DNA of 59,865 nt, filler included. It is 4 parts of 4 records of this genome, joined end to end, with 100 filler letters (N's around TTAATTAATTAA, not from the genome) between each part and the next. Parts side by side here need not be neighbours in the genome. Positions count along the whole stretch, not along the records: positions 6,350 to 31,651 come from SRR20825019_2563; 3 more parts are not named here. One strand, 5' to 3'. A program made the translations under genes and the position numbers. Below the pieces are notes generated by a model. It saw nothing but the letters and a program-made list of their open reading frames with translations, was not told the DNA's origin and searched no databases. Numbering within the stretch: position 1 is the first letter of the stretch; every line of letters starts with the position of its first letter. Below are positions 4,120 to 54,333 of the stretch, piece by piece.

Positions 4120-4908
4120 ATGTCCGCCCCAACCCCCACCACCTCCTCCAATGGCGATGCTGCGGCCTACATCCGGGATAAGAAGATCGAGCCCCTCATG
4201 GAAGGTCTCCTCCACGACGTCCTTCTCAACCTCCCCAACGACCCCCTCGCTTTCCTCCTTGAGGCCCTCGCCACTAACCCCGCTCCAAAGTTTATCGTCT
4301 ACGGGCCCCCTGCGTGTGGAAAGGGTGAGCAGTGTAAGCGCATTGCGGCCCACACTGGTGCCGTCCACATTAGTACCGGTGACCTTCTCCGTGAGGAGAT
4401 TGCCAAGGGCTCAGAGCTTGGTCTCAGTGCCAAGCAGTTCATGGATAGTGGAGCATTGGTGCCTGATACCGTCATCACATCCCTCCTGAAGAACCGACTA
4501 TCCCAGCCCGATACCAAGTCAAAGGGGTGGGTACTGGACGGGTTCCCACGTACTCGCGCCCAGGCCATCAGCCTCCAGATCGAGGGTGTTATTCCTATGC
4601 GGTTCATCAGCATTGATGTGTCAGATGCTGTTTGTCAGGAGCGTGTTGCAGGCCGCGTCGTGGACCCCTCCACTGGTATTTCTTACAACTCCACCACCAA
4701 CCCTCCCCCTGCTGGCGTCAAGACCGAGGTCCGTACTGATGACGGCGTAGATGATCACAAGCGTCGCTTGGCCATCCATCGGCGAAATGAGCCCGAGGTG
4801 CATTCTTGCTATCCCGGTGCCCTGCGTGTATCAGGCGAGCGCACCCCTGACGAGATCTTCGTAGACATCCAGGCCGCCGTCGATGCTAAGCTCGTTACCG
4901 TAGACTAA
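4120..4908 (+). CDS. Adenylate kinase with an N-terminal Dpy-30/RIIa-like docking domain (flagellar type)
   Basis: P-loop GPPACGKG, HISTGDLLR and GWVLDGFPRT motifs. N-terminal YIRDKKIEPLMEGLLHDVLLNLPNDPLAFL. Confidence 0.92.
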   Translation: MSAPTPTTSSNGDAAAYIRDKKIEPLMEGLLHDVLLNLPNDPLAFLLEALATNPAPKFIVYGPPACGKGEQCKRIAAHTGAVHISTGDLLREEIAKGSELGLSAKQFMDSGALVPDTVITSLLKNRLSQPDTKSKGWVLDGFPRTRAQAISLQIEGVIPMRFISIDVSDAVCQERVAGRVVDPSTGISYNSTTNPPPAGVKTEVRTDDGVDDHKRRLAIHRRNEPEVHSCYPGALRVSGERTPDEIFVDIQAAVDAKLVTVD

Positions 4909-6249: not shown

Positions 6250-6349
6250 NNNNNNNNNNNNNNNNNNNNNNNNNNNNNNNNNNNNNNNNNNNNTTAATTA
6301 ATTAANNNNNNNNNNNNNNNNNNNNNNNNNNNNNNNNNNNNNNNNNNNN
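6250..6349. other. Artificial contig linker (N44-TTAATTAATTAA-N44)
   Basis: N runs around a six-frame stop linker; composition changes across it. Confidence 0.99.
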
Positions 6350-6361
6350 TATAATCAAAGA

Positions 6362-6378
6362 AAAGTTCAAACAAACGA
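6362..6378 (+). repeat. 17-bp site copy 1: AAAGTTCAAACAAACGA
   Basis: Read directly; 12 bp from the contig start, upstream of parD. Confidence 0.92.
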
Positions 6379-6422
6379 TTCCTAAAACATTCCTGATATA
6401 ATTCCGTTTGACAAATATTCAA

Positions 6423-6430
6423 TAAATTTG
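6423..6430 (+). promoter_or_regulatory. Bacteroidota -7 promoter element (TAAATTTG) for parDE
   Basis: Matches TAnnTTTG about 50 bp upstream of the likely ATG at 6479. No canonically spaced -33 box was identified. Confidence 0.5.
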
Positions 6431-6478
6431 CATCAATAATATGTTATAATGTGTATATTGTATGTAAATACTATTATT

Positions 6479-6739
6479 ATGGCAACAATAAGAAAATCAT
6501 TAACTATAACTGCTGCCCAGGAAGAGTGGATAAAATTACAAATCAAGAATGGTGGCTTCGCAAACGATAGTGAATACATGCGACATCTAATACGATTGGA
6601 TGAGGAGCGCAATAGGGAGTTTCTAATCACTAAGGCGGCCATACAGGATGGTTATGATAGTGGCGTAAATTCTAAAATCAGGTCTGTTGATGAAATTATT
6701 GAAGCTGCGATAGTTCGTAAAAAGAACAGAAATGCCTAG
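6479..6739 (+). CDS. parD: ParD-family (RHH) antitoxin
   Basis: MATIRKSLTIT...WIKLQIKNGGFANDSEYMRHLIR; overlaps parE by 8 nt. Confidence 0.88.
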   Translation: MATIRKSLTITAAQEEWIKLQIKNGGFANDSEYMRHLIRLDEERNREFLITKAAIQDGYDSGVNSKIRSVDEIIEAAIVRKKNRNA

Positions 6740-7022
6740 ATATTATTTATCGTCCAAAGCGGATGACGATATCGATGATATAGTGGATTATACCTTGGAA
6801 ACTTGGGGTGAATCACAGACGCATATCTATGTTACCGAATTATACCAATTTTTACAAACTCTGGCAGATAATCCCGATCTTGGCCGAAGTGCTTCAGAAT
6901 TTGCGGCTCTACTTAGAAGATACAACTATAAGGCACACACAATTTTTTACGAACCAACTGAAAAGGGCATATTCGTCGTTCGCATTTTAGGACAAGTAAG
7001 AGATTTCAAAAGACATCTTTAG
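6732..7022 (+). CDS. parE: ParE/RelE-family toxin
   Basis: YYLSSKADDDIDDIVDYTLETWG...LADNPDLGR...HTIFY...VVRIL, the typical ParE pattern. Confidence 0.9.
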   Translation: MPRYYLSSKADDDIDDIVDYTLETWGESQTHIYVTELYQFLQTLADNPDLGRSASEFAALLRRYNYKAHTIFYEPTEKGIFVVRILGQVRDFKRHL

Positions 7023-7041
7023 CAGATATTTATCTGATTAA

Positions 7042-7056
7042 AAAGTACAAATATAC
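7042..7056 (+). repeat. Site copy 2 (variant): AAAGTACAAATATAC, directly followed by ATG
   Basis: Same spacing as the consensus. The GTT/AAC arms become GTA/TAC, a compensatory change that preserves the palindrome. The terminal G is missing. Confidence 0.7.
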
Positions 7057-7524
7057 ATGCAGAAAATAAGCGTAAATTTTGGCATACTATTGGAAATTGT
7101 CGAGGACTGGATAAGGAATGATTTGATTGCCAATCGTATTACTGCCAGGATTGTCAATGGGGAAGAGACGGTGGAAGCAACCATTGACGGAGCTTATTTT
7201 GTTGAAAATCATAAAACGGTTTACTTGGTCATGCGGCGGCGGGAGCAGGAAGACCTTTTTGATGATGACGGAAACCTTCTCAATGATCAAACTCCGAGCG
7301 GTATTTATGAAAATCTTCGAGAACTGGAGAAACTAGGCGTAGATTACAGTACTCCGATTGAAATAGAGATATGGTTCTCGGATGGTGAGGATGATATTCA
7401 GTACCGGTTGGAGTGCCATCAATACTATGTCAGCAATGAAAGGTTGGCCGTTATCCATTTTCTTGGTCGTGAAGAAGATGAAGATAAGGATGAATTTATA
7501 AACTTTCTGCACGAACAATATTAA
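7057..7524 (+). CDS. Hypothetical acidic protein, 155 aa
   Basis: ORF fills the interval between site copies 2 and 3. D/E-rich; no family recognised. Confidence 0.8.
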   Translation: MQKISVNFGILLEIVEDWIRNDLIANRITARIVNGEETVEATIDGAYFVENHKTVYLVMRRREQEDLFDDDGNLLNDQTPSGIYENLRELEKLGVDYSTPIEIEIWFSDGEDDIQYRLECHQYYVSNERLAVIHFLGREEDEDKDEFINFLHEQY

Positions 7525-7528
7525 GTTT

Positions 7529-7545
7529 AAAGTTCAAGTAAACGA
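7529..7545 (+). repeat. 17-bp site copy 3: AAAGTTCAAGTAAACGA
   Basis: Lies 4 bp after the stop at 7524; its final A is the A of the next ATG (7545). Confidence 0.92.
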
Positions 7546-8003
7546 TGAAGAATCATCTAAAATTAAACCATACCGTCCTACTAACTGTTGTAATTTGTCT
7601 TCTAGGATGCAAATCAAAAGATGCGAAAATTGCGGAGACACTAGATGGCGGCTATGTTTTAAATAAAATTGAACATAAAGGTACTGATATTACTCCTGAG
7701 GTTATTGCGGCAATCCTTTCATTTAATGATTTCAAATTCAAACCACCCATAATTTCAAGTAAAGTTGGCAAAAGAGATAAATATGATTGGAAGCCAATAG
7801 AAGAAAAAAATGAAATTAAAATCAAGTTTAACACCGAGAATCAGATCTTCAAGGATATTTTTAAGATTTCGTTCAAGATTGATGATTCAAGCGAACAAAT
7901 TCATCTGTATATGAAATCCCAAAGCACACACATAAGTGCAACAAGGGTGTTCCTATTAGATGATTTTGAAGTTGTAAAAAGGAAGTTGATACTACTAAAT
8001 TAA
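7545..8003 (+). CDS. Hypothetical lipoprotein, 152 aa
   Basis: Signal peptide with lipobox LLGC; bounded by site copies 3 and 4. Confidence 0.8.
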   Translation: MKNHLKLNHTVLLTVVICLLGCKSKDAKIAETLDGGYVLNKIEHKGTDITPEVIAAILSFNDFKFKPPIISSKVGKRDKYDWKPIEEKNEIKIKFNTENQIFKDIFKISFKIDDSSEQIHLYMKSQSTHISATRVFLLDDFEVVKRKLILLN

Positions 8004-8018
8004 TTAAAAAGGAAAACT

Positions 8019-8035
8019 AAAGTTCAAAAAAACGA
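8019..8035 (+). repeat. 17-bp site copy 4: AAAGTTCAAAAAAACGA
   Basis: 15 bp after the stop at 8003. Confidence 0.92.
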
Positions 8036-8098
8036 TGAACAGGTTTACGGTTTATGTAAAAATAACTCGGATATTCATTTACAACTAAAATTTAAACA

Positions 8099-8491
8099 AT
8101 GTTTACCATAGAGCAAATCGAAACCGCACATGAGAAGGTTAAATCTGGTGCTGATTTTCCAAAATACATTCAAGAAATCAAAGACATTGGTGTAACCGCA
8201 TTTGAAACATGGGTAACTGATAGTCATACCCAATATTTTGGAAAAGATGGATTTCAAACCAAATCTGAAGCAAAATATGATATGCTGATCATTGCTGATT
8301 TTTGTGATAAGGAAGGATTTGAAAAGTATTTAAGAATTCATCAAAAGGGAGAAACGGATTATCTTACCTTTTGTCAACATTGTGCTGAAACAGGAATCGA
8401 AAAATGGAAAGTGAATCTTGGTAGAATGACCTGTATATATTACGATAAAGTTGGAAATGAGATTCTAATAGAGATTGTACCGACAGCCTAA
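8099..8491 (+). CDS. DUF1398 (YdfO-like) protein
   Basis: MFTIEQIETAHEKVKSGADFPKYIQEIK...HQKGETDYLTFC...GIEKW, characteristic of the family. Confidence 0.85.
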   Translation: MFTIEQIETAHEKVKSGADFPKYIQEIKDIGVTAFETWVTDSHTQYFGKDGFQTKSEAKYDMLIIADFCDKEGFEKYLRIHQKGETDYLTFCQHCAETGIEKWKVNLGRMTCIYYDKVGNEILIEIVPTA

Positions 8492-8500
8492 CCTGTCAAC

Positions 8501-8517
8501 AAAGTTCAAATAAACGA
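8501..8517 (+). repeat. 17-bp site copy 5: AAAGTTCAAATAAACGA
   Basis: 9 bp after the stop at 8491. Confidence 0.93.
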
Positions 8518-8542
8518 TTCAATCCAAACCCTTAAGGGGCCA

Positions 8543-9250
8543 CTAGGTACTTTTTACTTGCAAACAATCAACCTTGGGGTGAAGCCATAAGAAAGTAGCA
8601 GGCAATTGGGTAGTTATGATTTTTTTCTTCAATTTGGAGCGTACTTCTTCTTTGCCCGTTCCATAAATCAAGAGGATTATTCTTTTGGCAGAGAGGATGT
8701 TTTGCATACCCAGCGTCATTCCGAACGATGGTTTTATATCCAAATCCTTAACCATACCATGCTTTTGTGATGCCTCCGAAAGTTGAGCCACATGGCAAAA
8801 TGGCTGCAAGTGGTAATCAGGCTCATTAAAGCCAATATGTCCGTTCTTCCCCAATCCCAAAATACACAAATCGATTAAACCATCATTTTCAATCTTTTGT
8901 TGAATCCTATTACACTCTTTCGAAGCATTTTGTGGGTTGGTGATAAAACCAGTGTATCGATCATTGGGAATATGCAAGGGACTTAGAAGGTGTTCCTGCA
9001 AATAATACTCACAAGAACCTGGGTTTGTATCGGGTAGCCCGCCCCATTCATCCAATTTTACAATATGGAGCTTTTCGAAAAGCTCTGGCCGATTCAAATA
9101 TTGCCTTGCCAAAAACTCGTAGGTTCCTGTCGGGGAGTTTCCGGTAGCTGCACAAATACGAAGGTTTTTTTTCCTTTTAAGTTCTGAGAGTACAATATGG
9201 CCCGCATGTGCGCTCATCGCTTCATAGTCTTCAAAGAATTGGTTGTTCAT
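8543..9250 (-). CDS. Glucosamine/galactosamine-6-phosphate isomerase (NagB/AgaI family)
   Basis: ATGNSP, LDEWGGL and LGLGKNGHIGFNEP motifs. Start placed at the ATGA overlap with the upstream gene. Confidence 0.88.
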   Translation of the reverse strand: MNNQFFEDYEAMSAHAGHIVLSELKRKKNLRICAATGNSPTGTYEFLARQYLNRPELFEKLHIVKLDEWGGLPDTNPGSCEYYLQEHLLSPLHIPNDRYTGFITNPQNASKECNRIQQKIENDGLIDLCILGLGKNGHIGFNEPDYHLQPFCHVAQLSEASQKHGMVKDLDIKPSFGMTLGMQNILSAKRIILLIYGTGKEEVRSKLKKKIITTQLPATFLWLHPKVDCLQVKST

Positions 9251-9801
9251 GATATCCAAACGCTTTCACCTGTATAGGGAATGCAGCCTTCAAATCTACC
9301 GGGAACTGGATTGTAACGAAGGGCTTGGGTCGCACCAATCTCAGAAGTAAAATAACCCCAAACGGTAAGCTCTTTGAGCATGGTGAAAAAATGGGGCTTC
9401 TCCAAAGATGTGGCTTTTTTGGCCTCCTCATCAAATTGGGTAAGTAGATTTAGTTTTTTTTCTTTCGATAAAGAGAGAAATGATTCTCGAAATACATCTA
9501 TGGATCTTTCCTCGATTTTATCCAAACCACTGATAAAGATTAAGGCTTCATCTTTGCTATAACAGTCATTTACGATTGTTTTCATAAATGCTCCAATATG
9601 AGCTGCCTTTGCCCCAGGGGACTCGTCTGTGTCAGGAAGAATGGTTTCGCCTATTTCATCAAGAAAGTGAACATCGTCATTGGTTACAATTTCAGACCTT
9701 TTCTTGGGGGGCACAACACAGCCCGACAAAAAGAATTGGGCTCCTATGACACTTCCTCCCAAAATGGTGGCTGTAAGTTTTAAAGCATCTCTTCTTTCCA
9801 T
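9247..9801 (-). CDS. Gluconate 2-dehydrogenase subunit 3-like Tat lipoprotein (GMC small subunit)
   Basis: MERRDALK Tat motif, LSGC lipobox, ETILPDTDESPGAK, GYFTSEIG. Confidence 0.88.
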   Translation of the reverse strand: MERRDALKLTATILGGSVIGAQFFLSGCVVPPKKRSEIVTNDDVHFLDEIGETILPDTDESPGAKAAHIGAFMKTIVNDCYSKDEALIFISGLDKIEERSIDVFRESFLSLSKEKKLNLLTQFDEEAKKATSLEKPHFFTMLKELTVWGYFTSEIGATQALRYNPVPGRFEGCIPYTGESVWIS

Positions 9802-9836
9802 GTTTTAATCTGTTTGGAATAGTGGGAACATGACCA

Positions 9837-10919
9837 CTATACTTTCTTCCATAATTTATAGGGCTTGTCCACATCCGATTTGAAAGGAAGTGGCACTTTT
9901 TTTCCAGTGCCCGCTGATTCATAGGCCGCAAGAATCACTTCCAGTACAGCCTTTCCATCTTCCCCTGTCACCAAGGGCTGTTTGTCATTTTTGACACAAT
10001 CCACAAAATGTTCAAATTCCTGTGGGAAGCCATAGTTCCAGCTCTCTTCAAACATGGTATAGCTCCACCCAATGGTGTTTCCTGCCTTTTCCACAGCATA
10101 GCCCACTCCCTTGCTACTGTATGTTTGGATTGAGTTGCCTTGGAGTATATCTGCGTAGGCCACTCCTTCAGAACCATGTATTTCGGCTTTATCGTCCATG
10201 CCCCCGAGTTTGGTCCAGCTTTCTTCCATTACGGCCGTTACACCATCTTCGAATTCCAGAATAATAATGGAGTTGTCATCACCTTCGGTTTTATCGCCGT
10301 GCACACTGGTCATCATTTGGGCATATACCGATTTAATGTTTTTTTTAGGATGTAGCCATCTAAAAAATTGGATGGCATGGCAGCCCATATCCATAGTTAC
10401 CCCACCTCCAGAGCGTTCAATATCCCAAAAGTGGTCGGCGTGAGGGCCATCGTGTTTTTCCGATTGTTTGAAGAGCACAGGCTCTCCAAGGGCTCCTTCG
10501 TCCAATAAAGCCTTCAAACGCACATATTTAGGGGCGAAACAAAGTTCTTCGGCATACATGAGCTTTACATTGGCTTTTTTACAGGCATCGATCATTAAAT
10601 CCGCTTCCTTTAAGTTCATGCACAAAGGTTTTTCAACCACTACATGTTTGCCTGCCTTTGCTATCTTTAAAGTAATCTCACAGTGTAGATAGTTGGGTGC
10701 GCCAATGACCACCATATCAATTTGCGGCATTGCCAACATTTTGTCCAGATCCGTAAAATGATTGGGAATGTTGAACTTTTCTGCAAAGTTTTCGGCATGC
10801 CCTTTTGTAGGAGACATTACCGCTAAAATCTCCGCATCCGATACCCTGCTCAATGCATCGGCATGTATACTTGATATGAATTGAGAACCGACGAGTCCGA
10901 CTCCGACTTTTTTGTCCAT
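9837..10919 (-). CDS. Gfo/Idh/MocA-family oxidoreductase
   Basis: GKHVVVEKP and GGGVTMDMGCH motifs. Confidence 0.92.
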   Translation of the reverse strand: MDKKVGVGLVGSQFISSIHADALSRVSDAEILAVMSPTKGHAENFAEKFNIPNHFTDLDKMLAMPQIDMVVIGAPNYLHCEITLKIAKAGKHVVVEKPLCMNLKEADLMIDACKKANVKLMYAEELCFAPKYVRLKALLDEGALGEPVLFKQSEKHDGPHADHFWDIERSGGGVTMDMGCHAIQFFRWLHPKKNIKSVYAQMMTSVHGDKTEGDDNSIIILEFEDGVTAVMEESWTKLGGMDDKAEIHGSEGVAYADILQGNSIQTYSSKGVGYAVEKAGNTIGWSYTMFEESWNYGFPQEFEHFVDCVKNDKQPLVTGEDGKAVLEVILAAYESAGTGKKVPLPFKSDVDKPYKLWKKV

Positions 10920-10931
10920 AATCTTAATTTA

Positions 10932-12620
10932 TTATAACAATCCTTTTTTAAACTGGGCCGCAGCATATGTGGCTGCCCGTGCTGTAAGTGCCATATACAG
11001 AATGGATGGACTTTGATTGCCCGTACTGGTCATACAGGCGCCATCGGTCACAAATACATTTTTGCATTCATGCATTTGGTTGTATTTGTTCAGAAGGGAA
11101 GTCTCAGGGTCTTTCCCCATTCTTACACCACCCATTTCGTGGATATCCAATCCAGGTGCTTGGTTGTTGTCCTGTGTGTCTATATCCGTACAGCCCATTT
11201 TTTCGAGCATGCGACGACTTTCCACAAGAAAATCTTTAATCATTTTTTCGTCATTTTCATCATAACCAACATCTGTGACAAGTAAGGGAATGCCCCAATC
11301 ATCTGTCTTATCCTGGCTCAAATAAACCCTGTTCGATGCTTTTGGGATAGTTTCTCCCTGCATGTACATATAGATTTGCCAATTCCCGGGTTTACTTAGT
11401 TTGTGTTTAAAGTCTGCCCCAAGGTGTGGTTTCTCGTCAGGGATTTCTTCGGCTCTGTTTCGATAGGCTCCGGTAAAAATAGTATATCCGCCAAGAAAAT
11501 CGGTATCCTGTTCCTTTAAATTCCGGTAATTGGCTATAATACATTCCGATGGCCTTGAACCATAATAATATTTGTCCTCATATCCACTGATTTTGGCACC
11601 TGCTCGGGCCCTGTATATATGAAAACCGATATACCTTCCCAATAAGTCATAATCGTTGCCCAGACCATTGGGAAAACGATCGGATTTTGAATTGAGTAAA
11701 ATCAAATTGGAATTGAGTGCCGATGCATTCACAAAAATAATTCTGGCGCTGAAGATGAACTCCTCTTTTGTATTGGAATCAATGACCTTGACACCGGAAG
11801 CTTTTCCCGAATCCTCATCGTAAACAATTGAATGCACTACCGAAAACGGTCTAATCGTTAGGTTACCTGTTTTCTCGGCCCAAGGCAATGTGGAGGTGTT
11901 AGAACTGAAGTACCCTCCGAATGGACATCCTCTCATACACTTATTGCGACAAAGGCACTTGCCCCTACCTTGGTCCAAATGGGTTTGCTCTGGTTCGCTG
12001 AGGTGCGCCCATCTTCCCTGAGCCAAATATCTTCCAGAGAAATGTTCTTCGAGCGTGCTTTTCATGTGTTCCTCCACGCAGTTCAATTCGAAAGGGGGCA
12101 AAAACTCCCCATCGGGCATAGCCTCAATACCATCCTTATTACCACATACGCCAATGAATTTCTCCACATGGGAGTACCATGGGGCAATATCATTATAATC
12201 AATGGGCCAACCTATCCCATAATTGTACTTTTCAGGTGCTTTGAACTCGTAATCGCTCCAACGTTGACAGGCCCTTCCCCAAATCAGGGATTTACCACCT
12301 ACTTGATATCCTCGTATCCAATCGAAAGGTTTATCCTGTACATAGGGATGATCAGTATCCTTTATAAAAAAATGGGCCGTATCCTCCCCAAATCCGGATG
12401 CCCTGGTAATCAGTGGGTTTTCTTCATAGAACTTTTTGGTCATTCGGCCCCGGTGTTCAAAATCCCACGGATCCATGGTCATGGTGGGATAATCTTTGAT
12501 GTGCTCTACATCCCTTCCCCTTTCCAGTACGAGCGTTTTTAAGCCTTGTTCACAAAGTTCTTTGGCAGCCCAGCCTCCAGATATTCCCGATCCTATAACG
12601 ATGGCATCAAAATGTTCCAT
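10932..12620 (-). CDS. GMC flavoprotein (glycoside 3-dehydrogenase-like large subunit)
   Basis: IGSGISGGWAAKEL, RGYQVGGKS, IHEMGGVRMG and QSPSILYMALTARA motifs. Confidence 0.92.
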   Translation of the reverse strand: MEHFDAIVIGSGISGGWAAKELCEQGLKTLVLERGRDVEHIKDYPTMTMDPWDFEHRGRMTKKFYEENPLITRASGFGEDTAHFFIKDTDHPYVQDKPFDWIRGYQVGGKSLIWGRACQRWSDYEFKAPEKYNYGIGWPIDYNDIAPWYSHVEKFIGVCGNKDGIEAMPDGEFLPPFELNCVEEHMKSTLEEHFSGRYLAQGRWAHLSEPEQTHLDQGRGKCLCRNKCMRGCPFGGYFSSNTSTLPWAEKTGNLTIRPFSVVHSIVYDEDSGKASGVKVIDSNTKEEFIFSARIIFVNASALNSNLILLNSKSDRFPNGLGNDYDLLGRYIGFHIYRARAGAKISGYEDKYYYGSRPSECIIANYRNLKEQDTDFLGGYTIFTGAYRNRAEEIPDEKPHLGADFKHKLSKPGNWQIYMYMQGETIPKASNRVYLSQDKTDDWGIPLLVTDVGYDENDEKMIKDFLVESRRMLEKMGCTDIDTQDNNQAPGLDIHEMGGVRMGKDPETSLLNKYNQMHECKNVFVTDGACMTSTGNQSPSILYMALTARAATYAAAQFKKGLL

Positions 12621-12871
12621 AAAAATTCATAATTAAGAAATGTTCCATTTGATTGTTAATAAACCAGATGTGCCTAACTAATAAATCCGTTCAAAAAACA
12701 ACCTCGATTTTCCGGTTTACTGTGTGTCCGAGTTTCTTATCAGTAGTGATAAACTCATTCCCAAGAACAAATTGTAATTGCCTTGATTAAAGTTTAATTT
12801 CAAATATGGTCAATTCTTATATGTGTCTTTTTGTAAATTACTCCATATTTTTTGTAAAATCATGAAAGAAT

Positions 12872-13672
12872 ATGATAAATGGAGCACAGATAGATGATTT
12901 TAAACGCTTTTATTTTGAACTTGACGATAACAAGCCCATCCAAATCTTATTGAACAGGCATGAAAACAGAGAAGAAGGTTGGTTTGACATGCATTATGAA
13001 TTCGAACTGGGAGTAGTATTGAAAGGTAAAATGAAACGCTCGTACCTAGGATACGATATAGAAATAGGGCCAGGGGAGGTTTGGTTTTGCAATATGTGGG
13101 AACCACATGGTTTTGAAATACTGGAGGCCCCCTGTGAGGTGGCTGTATTTGTTATCGACCCAAGATATTTGGCAACCACACTTTTCTTAGATAGGGATAT
13201 GACTTCAACATTTATGGTTCCACCAATGGATAGACCTAGGACAGCAGTAAATTTGAAGGGCGAAATAAAGAATCTGGCAAAAAAAGTCCAACAAAGGTTT
13301 TCCAAAAAATATGATGCGGACTGGGCTAAAATATATTTATTTGAATTGTTGCTTTTCCTTATGGAAGAATGGAAAGTTCCCTTACAAGAATCAAATCATG
13401 GGCATAGAACCTCCATTCAAGGAGCCTTACGCTTGATTTTTGAAGAAAAAAGGCTCATAACCACTAAAGAGGCAGCTTTGGCGTGCCACATGTCCGTAAC
13501 TAAATTCACGGCCTTGTTCAAAGATCTAATGGGTTCAACCTTTTCTGATTTTGCATTACAATATCGAGTGAAGGGAGCCTCTTTTCAGCTAAAAAATTCT
13601 AATCTGACCCAAGAGACCGTAGCACTTAACTGGGGATTTTCCGATGCAAGCCACCTTCACAAATATTTGTAA
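12872..13672 (+). CDS. AraC-family regulator (cupin + HTH), C-terminus apparently truncated
   Basis: Cupin motif DMHYEFELG. The HTH ends at WGFSDASHLHKYL* and lacks the usual G-x-T/S-P-x-x-Y-R tail. Confidence 0.85.
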   Translation: MINGAQIDDFKRFYFELDDNKPIQILLNRHENREEGWFDMHYEFELGVVLKGKMKRSYLGYDIEIGPGEVWFCNMWEPHGFEILEAPCEVAVFVIDPRYLATTLFLDRDMTSTFMVPPMDRPRTAVNLKGEIKNLAKKVQQRFSKKYDADWAKIYLFELLLFLMEEWKVPLQESNHGHRTSIQGALRLIFEEKRLITTKEAALACHMSVTKFTALFKDLMGSTFSDFALQYRVKGASFQLKNSNLTQETVALNWGFSDASHLHKYL

Positions 13673-13685
13673 AACACATAAAATC

Positions 13686-13705
13686 CAAAATGGGGTAAGG
13701 CTACA
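13686..13705 (+). repeat. Left copy of a 20-bp inverted repeat: CAAAATGGGGTAAGGCTACA
   Basis: 19/20 identical to the reverse complement of 27833-27852. Confidence 0.85.
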
Positions 13706-13904
13706 ACCCGAATTGAACATTTTGATTGATAAAATTGTGGCGGAAAAATGGCACACCGGAGACAAAATTTCGGAACATATTGAGGAAATAAAATTTGAGG
13801 AATTTGATAACTCAACTAAAGATAAAATTCTGACCGAATTGTTCAATATCCAAATTAGAATGGTTGATGGCGGAGAGGAAACGGACTCTTATTGGCATCT
13901 TTAA
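13706..13904 (+). pseudogene. 3' remnant (or short TTG-initiated ORF) of an acidic cassette gene
   Basis: Frame PELNILIDK...EETDSYWHL* has no convincing start. Its TAA overlaps site copy 6. Confidence 0.45.
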
Positions 13905-13919
13905 AGTTTAAATAAACGA
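13903..13919 (+). repeat. 17-bp site copy 6: AAAGTTTAAATAAACGA
   Basis: Perfect GTTT-AAAT-AAAC core; overlaps the stop codon of the upstream ORF. Confidence 0.9.
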
Positions 13920-13936
13920 CGGGCAACCATTCATTG

Positions 13937-13944
13937 TAAATTTG
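13937..13944 (+). promoter_or_regulatory. Bacteroidota -7 element (TAAATTTG) for the hydrolase gene
   Basis: TAnnTTTG about 50 bp upstream of the TTG start at 13994. Confidence 0.5.
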
Positions 13945-13993
13945 CGTCTCTACTTATAGAGGCTGAAATTTTACTCTATAAAACCATTACATT

Positions 13994-15400
13994 TTGAAGA
14001 AAATCATCCAATCAGCTGTTCATTTTCTATGCTTCTTTGCATTTTGGACCGCTCAATCCCAATCTTGTCCTAATTCCGATAATGTCCCTGAACTTGATGG
14101 CTCCGTTTGCATTACTACCAAAGCCCCCCTGAATTATCAAGAAGGTGATGAAAATACTATAAACTTGTTCGTTAGAAAGTTTCCTGCAAAAAAAGATAGA
14201 AAGGGATCTATCTGGTTAATACCTGGAGGACCTGGTGAATCCGGTGCAAGTCTATATCCTCTGATCAATCAGTTCTCTAACCTATTTCCTAATCTGGATA
14301 TTTTTGTTCCTGATCATAGGGGCACTGGATATTCCAGTAAAATATGTCCCAAAGAAGAAATAGTTGATTCTCCAGATGGGATGGCTCTGGCCAATGATGA
14401 ATGGGGTCCCTGCTTTAACTACATGTACAGTAATTTGGAGTACGTAAAGGCATTTACTATTACCAATGCCGCTAGGGACCTTAGCTTCTTGATCAATGAA
14501 TTTAGTGGAACGGAAGAGCGCTACATCTACGGTGTTTCCTATGGAACACAATTGGTATTACGTTTGTTACAATTAGGGACAGTAGATCTGGATGCCGTCA
14601 TCTTGGATTCTCTGGTTCCCCTTCAAGACGATGATGAATTTGATCTAAGCCACAGATCATTGGTCACGGATGATGTTGGAAAATCTTTCCTTGAACAAGT
14701 TGATCATAGGGCACCTAACGACATAACCTTGGAAGAGCAATTGAACAGCATCATAGAGCGCACTAAAACGGATACTGAGTTTGCTGCTAATTTACCAAAA
14801 CAGGATCTGGCCATCCTTTTTGGTATGATGTTGGACATACCATATGTACGGAATTCAATACCAGAAATCATAAAGGGGCTTAATAGCAACGACTATGAAC
14901 CACTCCAAAAGGCCATCACACAGATCACAGCGTTTTATAATGACTATGGCGCGGCGTATCAATCCTCAACCAATTCCATTCCATTAACCCAGGTCATTAC
15001 TGCTTCTGAAAATAATCTGAGACCTGAAATGACAAAAACCGAAGTTATTGATGAGTCAAAAGATTTATTGTTTAAAAGTCCACTCCCCAGTTTAATTGCT
15101 GAAAATTCGATGCCAACCTACTCTAGGGATGAACACTTTGGGAAAACACCACAACACATACCCCCAACTTTGATTATCAATGGTACGCTCGATTCCAAAA
15201 CACATATTAAGGGAGCCGTGCGACATTACAAGCGTCTTGCCCAAAACAGCAGTTCAATATCCTTTATCAGAGTTAAGAACGCTCCGCATTTTATTGCACT
15301 TTTTGCACCAAGTGCATTTGAAAAAGTTGTAAGCAGGTTTATGAATACTAAGGCAATAGGAAACCAAACCGTTTCCGATGATAGCTTAGAAATAAATTAA
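13994..15400 (+). CDS. Secreted alpha/beta hydrolase (TAP/S33 peptidase-like)
   Basis: Signal peptide; GGPGESG, DHRGTG, nucleophile GVSYGT, GTLD and APH motifs. Confidence 0.88.
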   Translation: MKKIIQSAVHFLCFFAFWTAQSQSCPNSDNVPELDGSVCITTKAPLNYQEGDENTINLFVRKFPAKKDRKGSIWLIPGGPGESGASLYPLINQFSNLFPNLDIFVPDHRGTGYSSKICPKEEIVDSPDGMALANDEWGPCFNYMYSNLEYVKAFTITNAARDLSFLINEFSGTEERYIYGVSYGTQLVLRLLQLGTVDLDAVILDSLVPLQDDDEFDLSHRSLVTDDVGKSFLEQVDHRAPNDITLEEQLNSIIERTKTDTEFAANLPKQDLAILFGMMLDIPYVRNSIPEIIKGLNSNDYEPLQKAITQITAFYNDYGAAYQSSTNSIPLTQVITASENNLRPEMTKTEVIDESKDLLFKSPLPSLIAENSMPTYSRDEHFGKTPQHIPPTLIINGTLDSKTHIKGAVRHYKRLAQNSSSISFIRVKNAPHFIALFAPSAFEKVVSRFMNTKAIGNQTVSDDSLEIN

Positions 15401-15526
15401 TTAATGATACCGCCCAATATTTTTGTTAGTTCAAAAATATGGAGCAATTTTATTGCTTAGGAACTATGTTCGCTTCTAATTCCTTTTATTGTTTTAACGT
15501 TTTTATCTAATTAAGCCTCCAGAGCA

Positions 15527-15543
15527 ATAGTTTGGAAAAACGA
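15527..15543 (+). repeat. 17-bp site copy 7 (degenerate): ATAGTTTGGAAAAACGA
   Basis: Retains AGTTT-N4-AAACGA; lies downstream of the hydrolase gene. Confidence 0.65.
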
Positions 15544-15846
15544 TTTATTTTAAGTCTTTTAGCTCCAAAAAGAATCTTGTGACTATTATTTGGCCACCAA
15601 GAAAAATAGTAGTTCGCTAAAGGAATTACTCGAGTGAATTTGGAATAGGCACTCCAAGTGCAAACAAGACTCTTCTTTATTCGAGAGAATGAGACTTTAC
15701 TTGATGATTTGGATTCGATAGTACTTATTGTGAATCTAGGAACAGGAAAGGTCCAAGAGGATAAAAAAACCCCTGAACCTCTGTTCACCTTACTTTCAAA
15801 ACATATCAATGTTCTATCAATCGCTTTGATTGGTGAAAAAATTGGA

Positions 15847-17400
15847 TTAATCCAAAAATTTTCCATTCACATCCAAAGAAATTTCCTCCCTGTCTTCTCC
15901 TCTTTCCAATCGAACCTTATATCCTATAAAATTGGTATCGTTTACAAAATGTACTCCGGTTATTTCAAATCCAGGGTATTTTGACAATAATGACTCTTCT
16001 GCTCCTTCAGGCAGTGGATCTTGATAAGGAATGGTATTGGAAAATCTACGCTCCACAATGGCTTCAGTATCCCTTTCGACAAATTCATTGGGAAGATCTG
16101 CCCTTTTAATTAAGTCAAACGCATCATAAAGCGCTCCAACGGCCGTGTAGGATTCAAAGGACAATTTATTATCCTCGATGGTGATTACTTGGAACAACTG
16201 TGTGTTTTCAGCCGCCCTATCTCTTTCGGCATCATAACCTTCCCATGCGTTTTTTCGTAAGCCATACATTTTTCCACCACTTACCGAAACTACATATACA
16301 GTTCCAGTTTTATCTCTCATATTGACCCCATCCAATACATTTTCTTTGGGAGATACCCTGCCACGGGCATAACTATGATCATGTCCCTGCAGTACTAGGT
16401 CAACCCCATATTGATCAAAAATAGGCTTCATTAACTCCCTCCATTCTTTATTGTCCCTACCCTCGGAAGCGGAAAACAAAGGATGGTGAAATGTTACGAT
16501 GACCCAATCACTATCCGTTTTCGATAGTATATGATCTACCCACTCGGCTTGTTTCTCATGGTCAACATTACTGTTCAATCCAATAATCCGCATATTCCCA
16601 TAGTCCATGTAATAAGCGGTTTCTTCCAATCCCTCAGGTCCATTTTCCGGTAAGGTAAATTGATGTTTCCATTGTACGGACAAACTTCTTTCAGAAGCTT
16701 CAGGGCTCAAATTTCGATACTCATGGTTTCCCGGAATCGGAAAAGCACCAATGGAACTATGAATCCAACCACCAGCGTCAAACCATTCTTGCCATTGTTG
16801 TTCGTTGTGGGCGTTGTTTACCAAATCACCTGCATGCACAATAAATTTTGCATCAGGGGCTTTTTTATAGCTCTCCCTGATCAGACGTGACCATAATTCC
16901 AATATAAAATTTTGGGTGTCCCCTACGTATAAAAATGAGAACTTGTCCTTACTTTCTTTTGGTGCGGTTTTAAATTGAATCCACTCGCTCCATCGTTTGC
17001 CATCCCCTACCCGATATGCATAAGTTGTATCACTCTTTAAATCTGTAAACCACACTGAATGGTAATTCGCCAGTATTTCAGCCTCATTGATCTCTATAGC
17101 ATCAAAAGTTGTGGTCACTGCTTTTATGGTCTTTGCATTACGCCAAAATTTAGGGGCTGCGGTTGCAATGGCTATTTCTGCGTAGGCAGTATCTATTTCA
17201 GAAGTTGTTCGCCACGTAACACTGGCGGTTGTTGATGGATCCTCCCCATAGGAAAGTACAATTCTATCCGGGTGATTTGTGGGTTTGCGCCATTCCACAT
17301 CAAATTCCGGCGCTTTATAGGTACGGGGTTCCTGCCCTACAGTCTTACCCACTACCAATAACCCGAAAAAAAACATTCCAATTTTAAGTTTCGCTGACAT
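15847..17400 (-). CDS. Purple-acid-phosphatase-like metallophosphoesterase with an N-terminal FN3-like domain
   Basis: GDTQ, HAGDLV, GNHEY, FHHP and GHDHSYAR motifs; signal peptide. Confidence 0.92.
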   Translation of the reverse strand: MSAKLKIGMFFFGLLVVGKTVGQEPRTYKAPEFDVEWRKPTNHPDRIVLSYGEDPSTTASVTWRTTSEIDTAYAEIAIATAAPKFWRNAKTIKAVTTTFDAIEINEAEILANYHSVWFTDLKSDTTYAYRVGDGKRWSEWIQFKTAPKESKDKFSFLYVGDTQNFILELWSRLIRESYKKAPDAKFIVHAGDLVNNAHNEQQWQEWFDAGGWIHSSIGAFPIPGNHEYRNLSPEASERSLSVQWKHQFTLPENGPEGLEETAYYMDYGNMRIIGLNSNVDHEKQAEWVDHILSKTDSDWVIVTFHHPLFSASEGRDNKEWRELMKPIFDQYGVDLVLQGHDHSYARGRVSPKENVLDGVNMRDKTGTVYVVSVSGGKMYGLRKNAWEGYDAERDRAAENTQLFQVITIEDNKLSFESYTAVGALYDAFDLIKRADLPNEFVERDTEAIVERRFSNTIPYQDPLPEGAEESLLSKYPGFEITGVHFVNDTNFIGYKVRLERGEDREEISLDVNGKFLD

Positions 17401-31651: not shown

Positions 31652-31751
31652 NNNNNNNNNNNNNNNNNNNNNNNNNNNNNNNNNNNNNNNNNNNNTTAAT
31701 TAATTAANNNNNNNNNNNNNNNNNNNNNNNNNNNNNNNNNNNNNNNNNNNN
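31652..31751. other. Artificial contig linker
   Basis: N44-TTAATTAATTAA-N44. Confidence 0.99.
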
Positions 31752-54233: not shown

Positions 54234-54333
54234 NNNNNNNNNNNNNNNNNNNNNNNNNNNNNNNNNNNNNNNNNNNNTTAATTAATTAANNNNNNNNNNN
54301 NNNNNNNNNNNNNNNNNNNNNNNNNNNNNNNNN
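54234..54333. other. Artificial contig linker
   Basis: N44-TTAATTAATTAA-N44. Confidence 0.99.

Follow-up and report, generated by a model that had tools for sequence, protein, structure and literature searches.

The stretch of DNA analysed here, referred to as the window, comprises 59,865 bases in four contigs, which are joined by runs of N at 6250-6349, 31652-31751 and 54234-54333. The region from 6362 to 15425 on its second contig is probably the distal part of a gene-cassette array that belongs to an integron-like cassette system, likely run by a small serine recombinase and often located on conjugative elements. In these arrays, copies of a short motif are clustered and biased to one strand, homology between loci breaks exactly at the motif, a recombinase gene is linked to it, and the motif does not form a hairpin. 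We infer that this recombinase would be the catalyst of cassette exchange. A previous interpretation of the letters of the window alone (the sequence-only reading) had proposed that genes are captured here by a possibly undescribed, site-specific system whose site is minimal, and this proposal is supported by the clustered and co-oriented sites, the exact breakpoints and the linked recombinase described below.

The pattern AGTTYNNNNAAACGA occurs six times in the window, in all cases on the plus strand, compared with a mean of 0.07 matches in shuffled sequences and at most one match in any of 100 shuffles, as the sequence-only reading had anticipated for both strand and rarity. The full repeated unit was found to be the 18-mer AAAGTTCAAATAAACGAT, and the window contains five good copies of it (0-2 mismatches) at 6362, 7529, 8019, 8501 and 13903. 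Seven copies had initially been listed, of which these five were retained, while the copy at 7042 is degenerate and the one at 15527 lacks support.

A sequence logo of 284 distinct contexts revealed a conserved block of 18 nt that spans positions -2 to +15, with no conservation outside of it. Positions -2, -1 and +15 lay outside the selection criteria, yet they are 90-94% conserved. The middle AAAT is as much a part of the conserved block as its flanks, and the palindromy of the block (GTT..AAC) is weak. Consequently, the original description of a 17-bp site with a palindromic core and conserved arms around a variable spacer holds for the existence of a short repeated site, but not for its internal structure. 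A folding signal was not detected in 118-nt contexts (mean z of -0.18, 7.5% below -2, n=80), and this lack of excess folding indicates that the site is not an attC-like hairpin. The 18-nt conservation, the missing folding signal and the absence of a 28-bp site layout agree with the previous statement that the site is neither attC nor dif.

The distribution of the motif was analysed genome-wide in the nearest genome compared (G001) and in a family sample of 151 genomes. In G001, a loose pattern yielded 20 matches and its reversed control six. Seven of the matches form one co-oriented cluster on contig C11, and four matches on contig C26 repeat the spacing of the window. The family survey, performed with the strict motif at no more than one mismatch and with a reversed-motif control, placed nearly all of the 151 genomes at the control level. 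Five genomes were enriched, with 12, 22, 12, 8 and 5 copies against 0-1 in the control, and here the copies again occur in co-oriented clusters. A dispersed occurrence of the motif in front of housekeeping genes throughout the genome, which would point to a regulatory or translation signal, is thereby ruled out.

Comparisons of related DNA show that the sites coincide with the limits of homology. The window and contig C26 of G001 are collinear at 98-99% identity from 8498 to 31651, and the likeness ends exactly at the site at 8501. To the left of this site, the window carries four cassettes, whereas G001 carries two different small cassettes behind HipBA modules. These two modules, toxin-antitoxin genes of the HipA-HTH (HipBA-like) type, are situated directly upstream of the orphan array on this contig (L002 8186-12062). 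Contigs assembled from four marine or estuarine metagenome runs were also aligned to positions 6350-16000, and the listed loose ends of these alignments come from three of the runs (X8, X12 and X13). Eleven of the 14 listed loose ends lie at or within 4 nt of a site, namely at 6362, 7536, 8019, 8039, 8498, 8501, 8518, 8520, 13922 and 13924, with position 8501 being represented by three contigs in two runs. One further loose end was found at 15425 and two elsewhere (11029 and 11060). The only listed joint, seen in one contig at 12641-12772, is located away from any site. It should be considered that assembled contigs reveal alternative junctions and not their frequencies.

The same pattern emerges for cassettes in other genomes. 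Cutting all fetched loci between consecutive sites yielded 311 cassettes of up to 4 kb, and 22 families with a total of 47 members recur across loci. Nearly all of these recurring cassettes have different neighbours on both sides, the exception being a pair of duplicate contigs of one assembly. None of the cassettes of the window is among the 22 shared families. In 23 pairs aligned on the site, per-position identity at the 5' joint is about 0.28 up to position -3 and about 0.77 from +16 onwards. The 3' joint shows the reverse, with values of about 0.73 as far as the site and about 0.3 beyond +15. The motif is thus a recombination joint.

Within the joint, the variants of the site indicate where the strands would be exchanged. 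Variants at positions -2 to +5 remain with the upstream cassette, as exemplified by position +4, whose identity is 0.96 at 3' joints and 0.65 at 5' joints, and position +12 leans the same way (0.83 and 0.70). A(+14) and T(+15) are identical in 23 of 23 pairs. As variants follow the upstream cassette and the final AT is invariant, we infer from this small and non-independent sample that the exchange takes place at or beside the AT and that the conserved 17 nt constitute the 3' end of the cassette. The terminal T was present in 192 of 200 sites regardless of their place in the array. Sites without it were considered as markers of array ends, and this possibility was rejected because T is found in 10 of 11 last, 35 of 37 first and 147 of 152 middle sites.

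A gene for a small recombinase is linked to the arrays. The five motif-rich genomes contain four small Resolvase-domain genes (E about 1e-39 to 1e-41), each of which precedes an array by 0.8-4.4 kb and shares its strand, while the four other Resolvase matches represent large recombinases or a fragment and are not near arrays. Genome G043, which contains 22 motif copies, has no intact Resolvase gene and instead exhibits a decayed recombinase fragment (residues ~108-198) right after an array site on contig C1 (L006, reverse-complemented, 4445-4718). In the remaining motif-rich genome, the array reaches within about 1.3 kb of the contig end. A protein-anchored search of species-representative genomes identified 269 relatives of the recombinase, of which the best 80 loci were analysed for motif copies with up to two mismatches; counts for 79 loci leave out L020, which has the same sequence as L001. 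All of these best 80 loci are Flavobacteriaceae-type records and include Flagellimonas/Allomuricauda, Maribacter, Arenibacter, Aquimarina, Croceitalea, Pricia, Euzebyella and others. Downstream of the recombinase gene, 288 motif copies were found on its own strand and none on the opposite strand, while upstream of it seven copies are in the same orientation and 30 are inverted. The reversed-motif control yielded 10 copies in all. At least one downstream site is present in 69, at least two in 50 and at least three in 40 of the 80 loci. As a negative control, 25 viral loci whose resolvases are distant relatives (29-48% identity) were scanned, and one match was obtained in 362 kb. One of the viral contigs (L124, 4711-6981) contains four same-strand copies of GGTAAACCTGTGG at distances of 0.5-0.9 kb upstream of a distant resolvase (34% identity), and these repeats may represent another motif-punctuated array.

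Across the 79 loci, no other gene besides the PF00239 recombinase was found to be conserved in the 10-kb flanks. A tyrosine integrase of the Arm-DNA-bind_5 type occurs in 16 of these loci and a conjugative coupling protein in seven. The sequence-only reading had expected a linked tyrosine recombinase, and this part has to be replaced: the constant neighbour is the small serine recombinase with its PF00239 and helix-turn-helix (HTH) domains. In G001, a truncated tyrosine integrase that retains only the arm-binding and SAM-like domains is situated just upstream of the serine recombinase gene (L001 14190-14819).

The recombinase comprises 202-227 amino acids (aa) and consists of a PF00239 domain (E 3.9e-41) followed by an HTH_7 domain. 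Residues Y5, R7, S9, D66, R67 and R70 are invariant in four aligned recombinases, and the closest solved structures are those of the Gin invertase (2.3e-37) and the gamma-delta resolvase (2.8e-28), with the Tn3 resolvase also being near. The protein is thus a small serine recombinase of the resolvase/invertase family. One recombinase clade (L014 5181-5852, L015 2677-3348, L016 12731-13414) carries a C-terminal CxxC...CxxH tail of ~25 aa, which is possibly a zinc ribbon, and this tail is lacking in the clade of 202-aa recombinases.

The region in front of the recombinase gene provides a further link between enzyme and motif. Nearly all upstream copies occupy constant positions relative to the recombinase ATG, with the inverted ones at about -9 and -93, and a forward half-site-like element is located between these two. 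The distal copy reads AAAGTTCAATAAAACGGT on the complement of the array strand in both recombinase clades. In many loci, this copy and a left half form a palindrome of roughly 34 bp, e.g., AGTTCAAAAAAACGG followed by CCGATAAATTGAACT. A comparison of the base at +12 in the gene-proximal site and in the array sites gave no information on covariation, because the distal site nearly always has C. Inverted half-sites like these resemble the binding sites of resolvase-type dimers (res, gix/hix). As palindromic copies of the motif make up the upstream region of the recombinase gene itself, the motif is tied to the serine recombinase. Compared with a layout of two inverted half-sites around a 2-bp centre, the palindromes before the gene are complete and the array sites keep one half and the AT. 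The array site looks like one putative recombinase half-site plus a central AT.

Based on these comparisons, the following model is proposed for binding, chemistry, direction control and expression. A cassette would be a compact unit, usually with one promoterless gene on the plus strand, that ends in the 17-nt AAAGTTCAAATAAACGA followed by T. The first 16 nt of the site would serve as the recognition half-site of the small serine recombinase and the last AT as the 2-bp crossover, while the other half of each site would be provided by the variable start of the next cassette. In a recombinase dimer, one subunit would occupy the specific half-site and the second would sit on the variable beginning of the cassette that follows. 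Two such sites would synapse, and double-strand cleavage at AT would be followed by subunit rotation. Recombination between direct sites would release whatever cassettes lie between them as a circle that carries one site, and in the reverse reaction a circle could insert at any site, so that arrays would be built and shuffled much like those of an integron. In related genomes, the recombinase gene heads the array on the same strand and is preceded by complete palindromic sites that are not centred on AT.

Several observations do not fit this model easily. A homologue of the recombinase was not found on the window (tblastn; best match E 0.015), nor is a recombinase present within 12 kb upstream of the syntenic array on contig C26 of G001. 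Downstream sites are missing in 11 of the 80 loci; six of these have the full 10 kb visible and five less than 3 kb. The position of the crossover is derived from 23 non-independent pairs, in which positions +6 to +8 show the same variation at the 5' and the 3' joint. Conservation of a single half, as in the array site, is unusual for the family, as the known sites of resolvase/invertase enzymes consist of two inverted half-sites. The palindromes upstream of the recombinase gene have a G-T or G-C centre and are unfit as partners of A-T sites; by the 2-bp-overlap rule, this should bar exchange with array sites and hence inversion of the gene. These palindromes probably serve as operators or accessory sites and do not take part in the exchange. 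The metagenome evidence consists of assembled contigs, and neither circles nor deletions were seen directly in them. The 5.4-kb unit of the window with genes on both strands is atypical for a cassette, given the median length of 606 bp (interquartile range 356-986 bp). Finally, the ParDE and DUF1398 genes of the window have homologues at 68-82% identity in 10 of 401 genomes, and most of these homologues are without sites at their flanks.

The array in the window starts 12 bp inside the second contig (6350-31651), and the unit sizes and gene contents given by the sequence-only reading (ParDE, two proteins without family, DUF1398, a set of sugar genes and a hydrolase) were found as described. 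Unless mentioned otherwise, all features are on the plus strand. The boundary site at 6362-6379, AAAGTTCAAACAAACGAT, has one mismatch, and a metagenome contig turns to unlike sequence just before 6362. It is followed by the ParDE cassette (6380-7041) with a ParD antitoxin at 6449-6739 and a ParE toxin at 6732-7022 (Pfam). The degenerate site at 7042-7059, AAAGTACAAATATACATG, shows five mismatches or, alternatively, two substitutions and the loss of one G, and it ends with the ATG that starts the following open reading frame (ORF). In other genomes, the homologues of the ParDE unit can be aligned to 6406-7046 and no further, and the 7042 copy coincides with the end of this homology (7021-7046). 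No break at 7042 is found among the listed metagenome loose ends, which suggests that this site has probably decayed. The next ORF (7057-7524) encodes an acidic protein of 155 aa without family match (Pfam; Atlas). It is followed by a site at 7529-7546, AAAGTTCAAGTAAACGAT, with one mismatch, from which a contig diverges at 7536 and whose final AT starts the ATG of the next ORF. This ORF (7545-8003) codes for a lipoprotein of 152 aa without Pfam match, possibly lipocalin-like, a lead from an Atlas feature score of 0.91-0.92. At the site at 8019-8036, AAAGTTCAAAAAAACGAT, with one mismatch, contigs break at 8019 and 8039, and a DUF1398 ORF is located at 8099-8491 (Pfam E 2.6e-38). The perfect site at 8501-8518 marks the left limit of collinearity with G001, and contig breaks surround it at 8498, 8501, 8518 and 8520.

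The large sugar-oxidation unit of 5.4 kb (8519-13902; mixed strands; Pfam) has sites at both ends and is common to the window and G001. Genes for a lactonase-like protein, gluconate 2-dehydrogenase subunit 3, a GFO/IDH/MocA protein and a GMC oxidoreductase are on the minus strand and an AraC regulator is on the plus strand; a small ORF is also part of the unit. The variant site at 13903-13920, AAAGTTTAAATAAACGAC, has two mismatches and carries C at a position where 94% of sites have T. At 13922 and 13924, contigs continue into other upstream sequences, and the alternative sequence at 13922 has a site copy of its own, which ends in CGAT. With C in place of the final T, the 13903 site may be inactive. 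The last unit contains an alpha/beta-hydrolase ORF (13994-15400; Pfam) and, like the 5.4-kb unit, is bounded by sites and contig breaks yet atypical. A degenerate copy, ttAGTTCAAAAATATGGA, is located at 15426-15443, with a contig break just before it at 15425. The sequence-only reading had placed a seventh copy, ATAGTTTGGAAAAACGA, at 15527-15543, and this candidate is not supported as a site, given its five mismatches to the 18-mer and the absence of a contig break there.

As neither the window nor the 12 kb upstream of the syntenic array in G001 contain a recombinase, the array of the window may be an orphan. The contig begins 12 bp before the first site, and the enzyme may be encoded beyond the contig end, as had been suspected previously, or elsewhere in the genome, or it may be absent. 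These circumstances would also fit the view that the array is a fossil, i.e., an orphan row of old joints that no longer recombines, comparable to attC clusters without an integrase, and the degenerate copies at 7042 and 15426 as well as the C at a near-invariant T in the 13903 copy point in the same direction. Still, four sites are perfect or have a single mismatch, and different cassettes are found at the same joints in G001 and in metagenome DNA, which implies recent exchange in closely related DNA. In addition, an intact recombinase is encoded on a contig of G001 other than C26 and could act in trans. A fossil state is unlikely, though it deserves serious consideration; it bears on present activity alone and does not conflict with an origin of the array in recombinase-mediated cassette exchange. 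If active, the array of the window would depend on an enzyme that acts in trans or is encoded past the end of the contig.

Analysis of the cassette content bears on the question whether the motif could instead be a reused expression signal. The longest ORF is on the array strand in 285 of 306 cassettes, with a median coding fraction of 84%. The AT of the site begins an ATG start codon in 47 of 244 cassettes, a TAA stop codon lies inside the site in 25 of 244, and a TAA overlapping its first letters acts as the stop in 21 of 244. The site is also A-rich, and A-rich sequence is favoured upstream of starts in this phylum. It could accordingly be argued that the motif combines a stop with a start context, or is an operator, and that ordinary or microhomology recombination produces the cassette pattern. 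However, the distances from site to start and from stop to site otherwise range from a few to ~300 nt (overall 0 to ~300 nt), which argues against a signal that acts at a fixed distance. Moreover, the breaks fall inside the 18-nt block in 23 of 23 pairs, and a stretch of 18 nt does not suffice for efficient homologous recombination. Most genomes of the family essentially lack the motif, and the same sequence builds inverted dimer-type sites before the recombinase gene. An expression signal is thus a very improbable explanation. The cassettes themselves are diverse: 150 cassette proteins match 106 Pfam families, none of which occurs more than three times, including beta-lactamase fold, thioredoxin-like, peptidase, GIY-YIG, Abi_2 and AAA_15 families, and ParDE units are present in eight of the 79 recombinase loci.

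Also very improbable is a scenario in which a tyrosine recombinase (the integrase of the conjugative element or a Xer-type enzyme as in pdif modules or rAID arrays) moves the cassettes and the serine enzyme is a passenger or has a resolution function. In its favour, 16 of the 79 loci have a Bacteroidota-type tyrosine integrase ~1 kb in front of the serine recombinase gene, a fragment of one is found there in G001, and conjugation genes are present on the contig of the window. However, 63 of the 79 loci have no integrase within 10 kb, a 28-30 bp arm-spacer-arm layout is missing, all copies are co-oriented, and the motif-built upstream region links the motif to the serine enzyme.

The remainder of the second contig (15847-31629) encodes a purple acid phosphatase, GH92, SusD/SusC and FecR, followed by a TraN-like protein (DUF4138) and TraM. 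The SusC/SusD, GH92 and FecR genes form a polysaccharide-utilisation locus downstream of the array, and the TraM and TraN-like conjugation genes are found at 27.9-29.6 kb of the window (Pfam). As this part of the contig is 98% identical to contig C26 of G001, the array appears to be located on or beside a conjugative element that different genomes have in common. The suggestion that the array is cargo of an integrative and conjugative element is plausible, since TraM and TraN-like genes share its contig and a coupling protein or integrase adjoins the module in some other loci. The G+C content varies from about 35-45% (second contig, ~40%) up to about 60% (third contig), and because of this wide difference between the joined contigs the genome bin may mix organisms. 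The N-linkers of the window contain a TTAATTAATTAA core.

Taken together, it is reasonably likely that the marine Flavobacteriaceae possess a widespread and so far undescribed analogue of the integron, in which a small serine recombinase would capture, excise and reorder cassettes via a half-site plus AT, in arrays that would reside on conjugative elements and could be served in trans. Integrons are the textbook case of a system that stockpiles single genes as mobile cassettes and so far practically the only one that is well characterised, and they are thought to require a specialised tyrosine recombinase and folded single-stranded sites. To our knowledge, the phylum is regarded as poor in integrons. 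If the model holds true, cassette capture would have evolved more than once, with a second, independent invention whose chemistry acts on double-stranded DNA and whose site is so short that it can also provide stop and start codons. This would help to explain the flux of accessory genes in a major group of marine polysaccharide degraders and would pose the mechanistic puzzle of a resolvase-type enzyme that acts on sites with one specific half. In practice, a minimal directional site and a compact recombinase could be used for gene stacking. A full-text literature search, with subscription journals and supplements outside its coverage, did not find a published description of such a system.

The arrays share many features with integrons. 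In both, compact cassettes of one gene each, mostly without a promoter, follow the recombinase in a row that runs in one direction and have the site at their 3' end, the cassettes are very diverse and include toxin-antitoxin pairs, genomes have cassettes in common that differ in their neighbours, and orphan arrays as well as decayed recombinase genes occur. However, the enzyme described here is a small serine recombinase that is co-oriented with the array, whereas IntI is a tyrosine recombinase encoded divergently. Likewise, the site is linear, 18 nt in length and does not form a hairpin, in contrast to attC sites with their folding imperfect inverted repeats of 55-140 nt, and a separate attI was not identified in the arrays. 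Co-oriented cassettes that are exchanged at the site are thus present, but both defining parts of an integron, IntI next to the array and attC, were tested for and are absent, and we rate the arrays as a new kind of cassette system.

With the resolvases and invertases (Tn3 and gamma-delta res-TnpR, Gin/Hin), the recombinase shares its family, its size and intact catalytic residues, as well as several binding sites of inverted half-sites before the gene, which are predicted here. The central AT of the array site also matches the crossover of res site I. The known role of these enzymes is to resolve cointegrates or to invert a single segment that is flanked by two full sites, whereas here up to a dozen direct sites with one half each are found between unrelated genes. 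Unlike in Tn3, no transposase or other partner gene is conserved (79 loci). We know of no resolvase or invertase that has been described to serve arrays of unrelated cassettes.

The pdif modules of Acinetobacter and the rAID-1 arrays of gut Bacteroidales, the latter of which come from the same phylum and were reportedly described by Ross and colleagues in 2019, likewise combine a recombinase with stacked, unrelated accessory genes on or close to mobile elements. Both depend on Xer-like tyrosine recombinases and longer sites, neither of which is found here, and pdif sites alternate in orientation whereas the sites of the present arrays are co-oriented. Islands of the staphylococcal cassette chromosome (SCC) type resemble the arrays in their serine chemistry and in the stacking of units at repeated joints. 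Their enzymes, however, comprise about 450-560 aa compared with 202-227 aa, and their units are multi-kb islands at one chromosomal att site, while the units of the arrays described here are single genes of ~0.6 kb.

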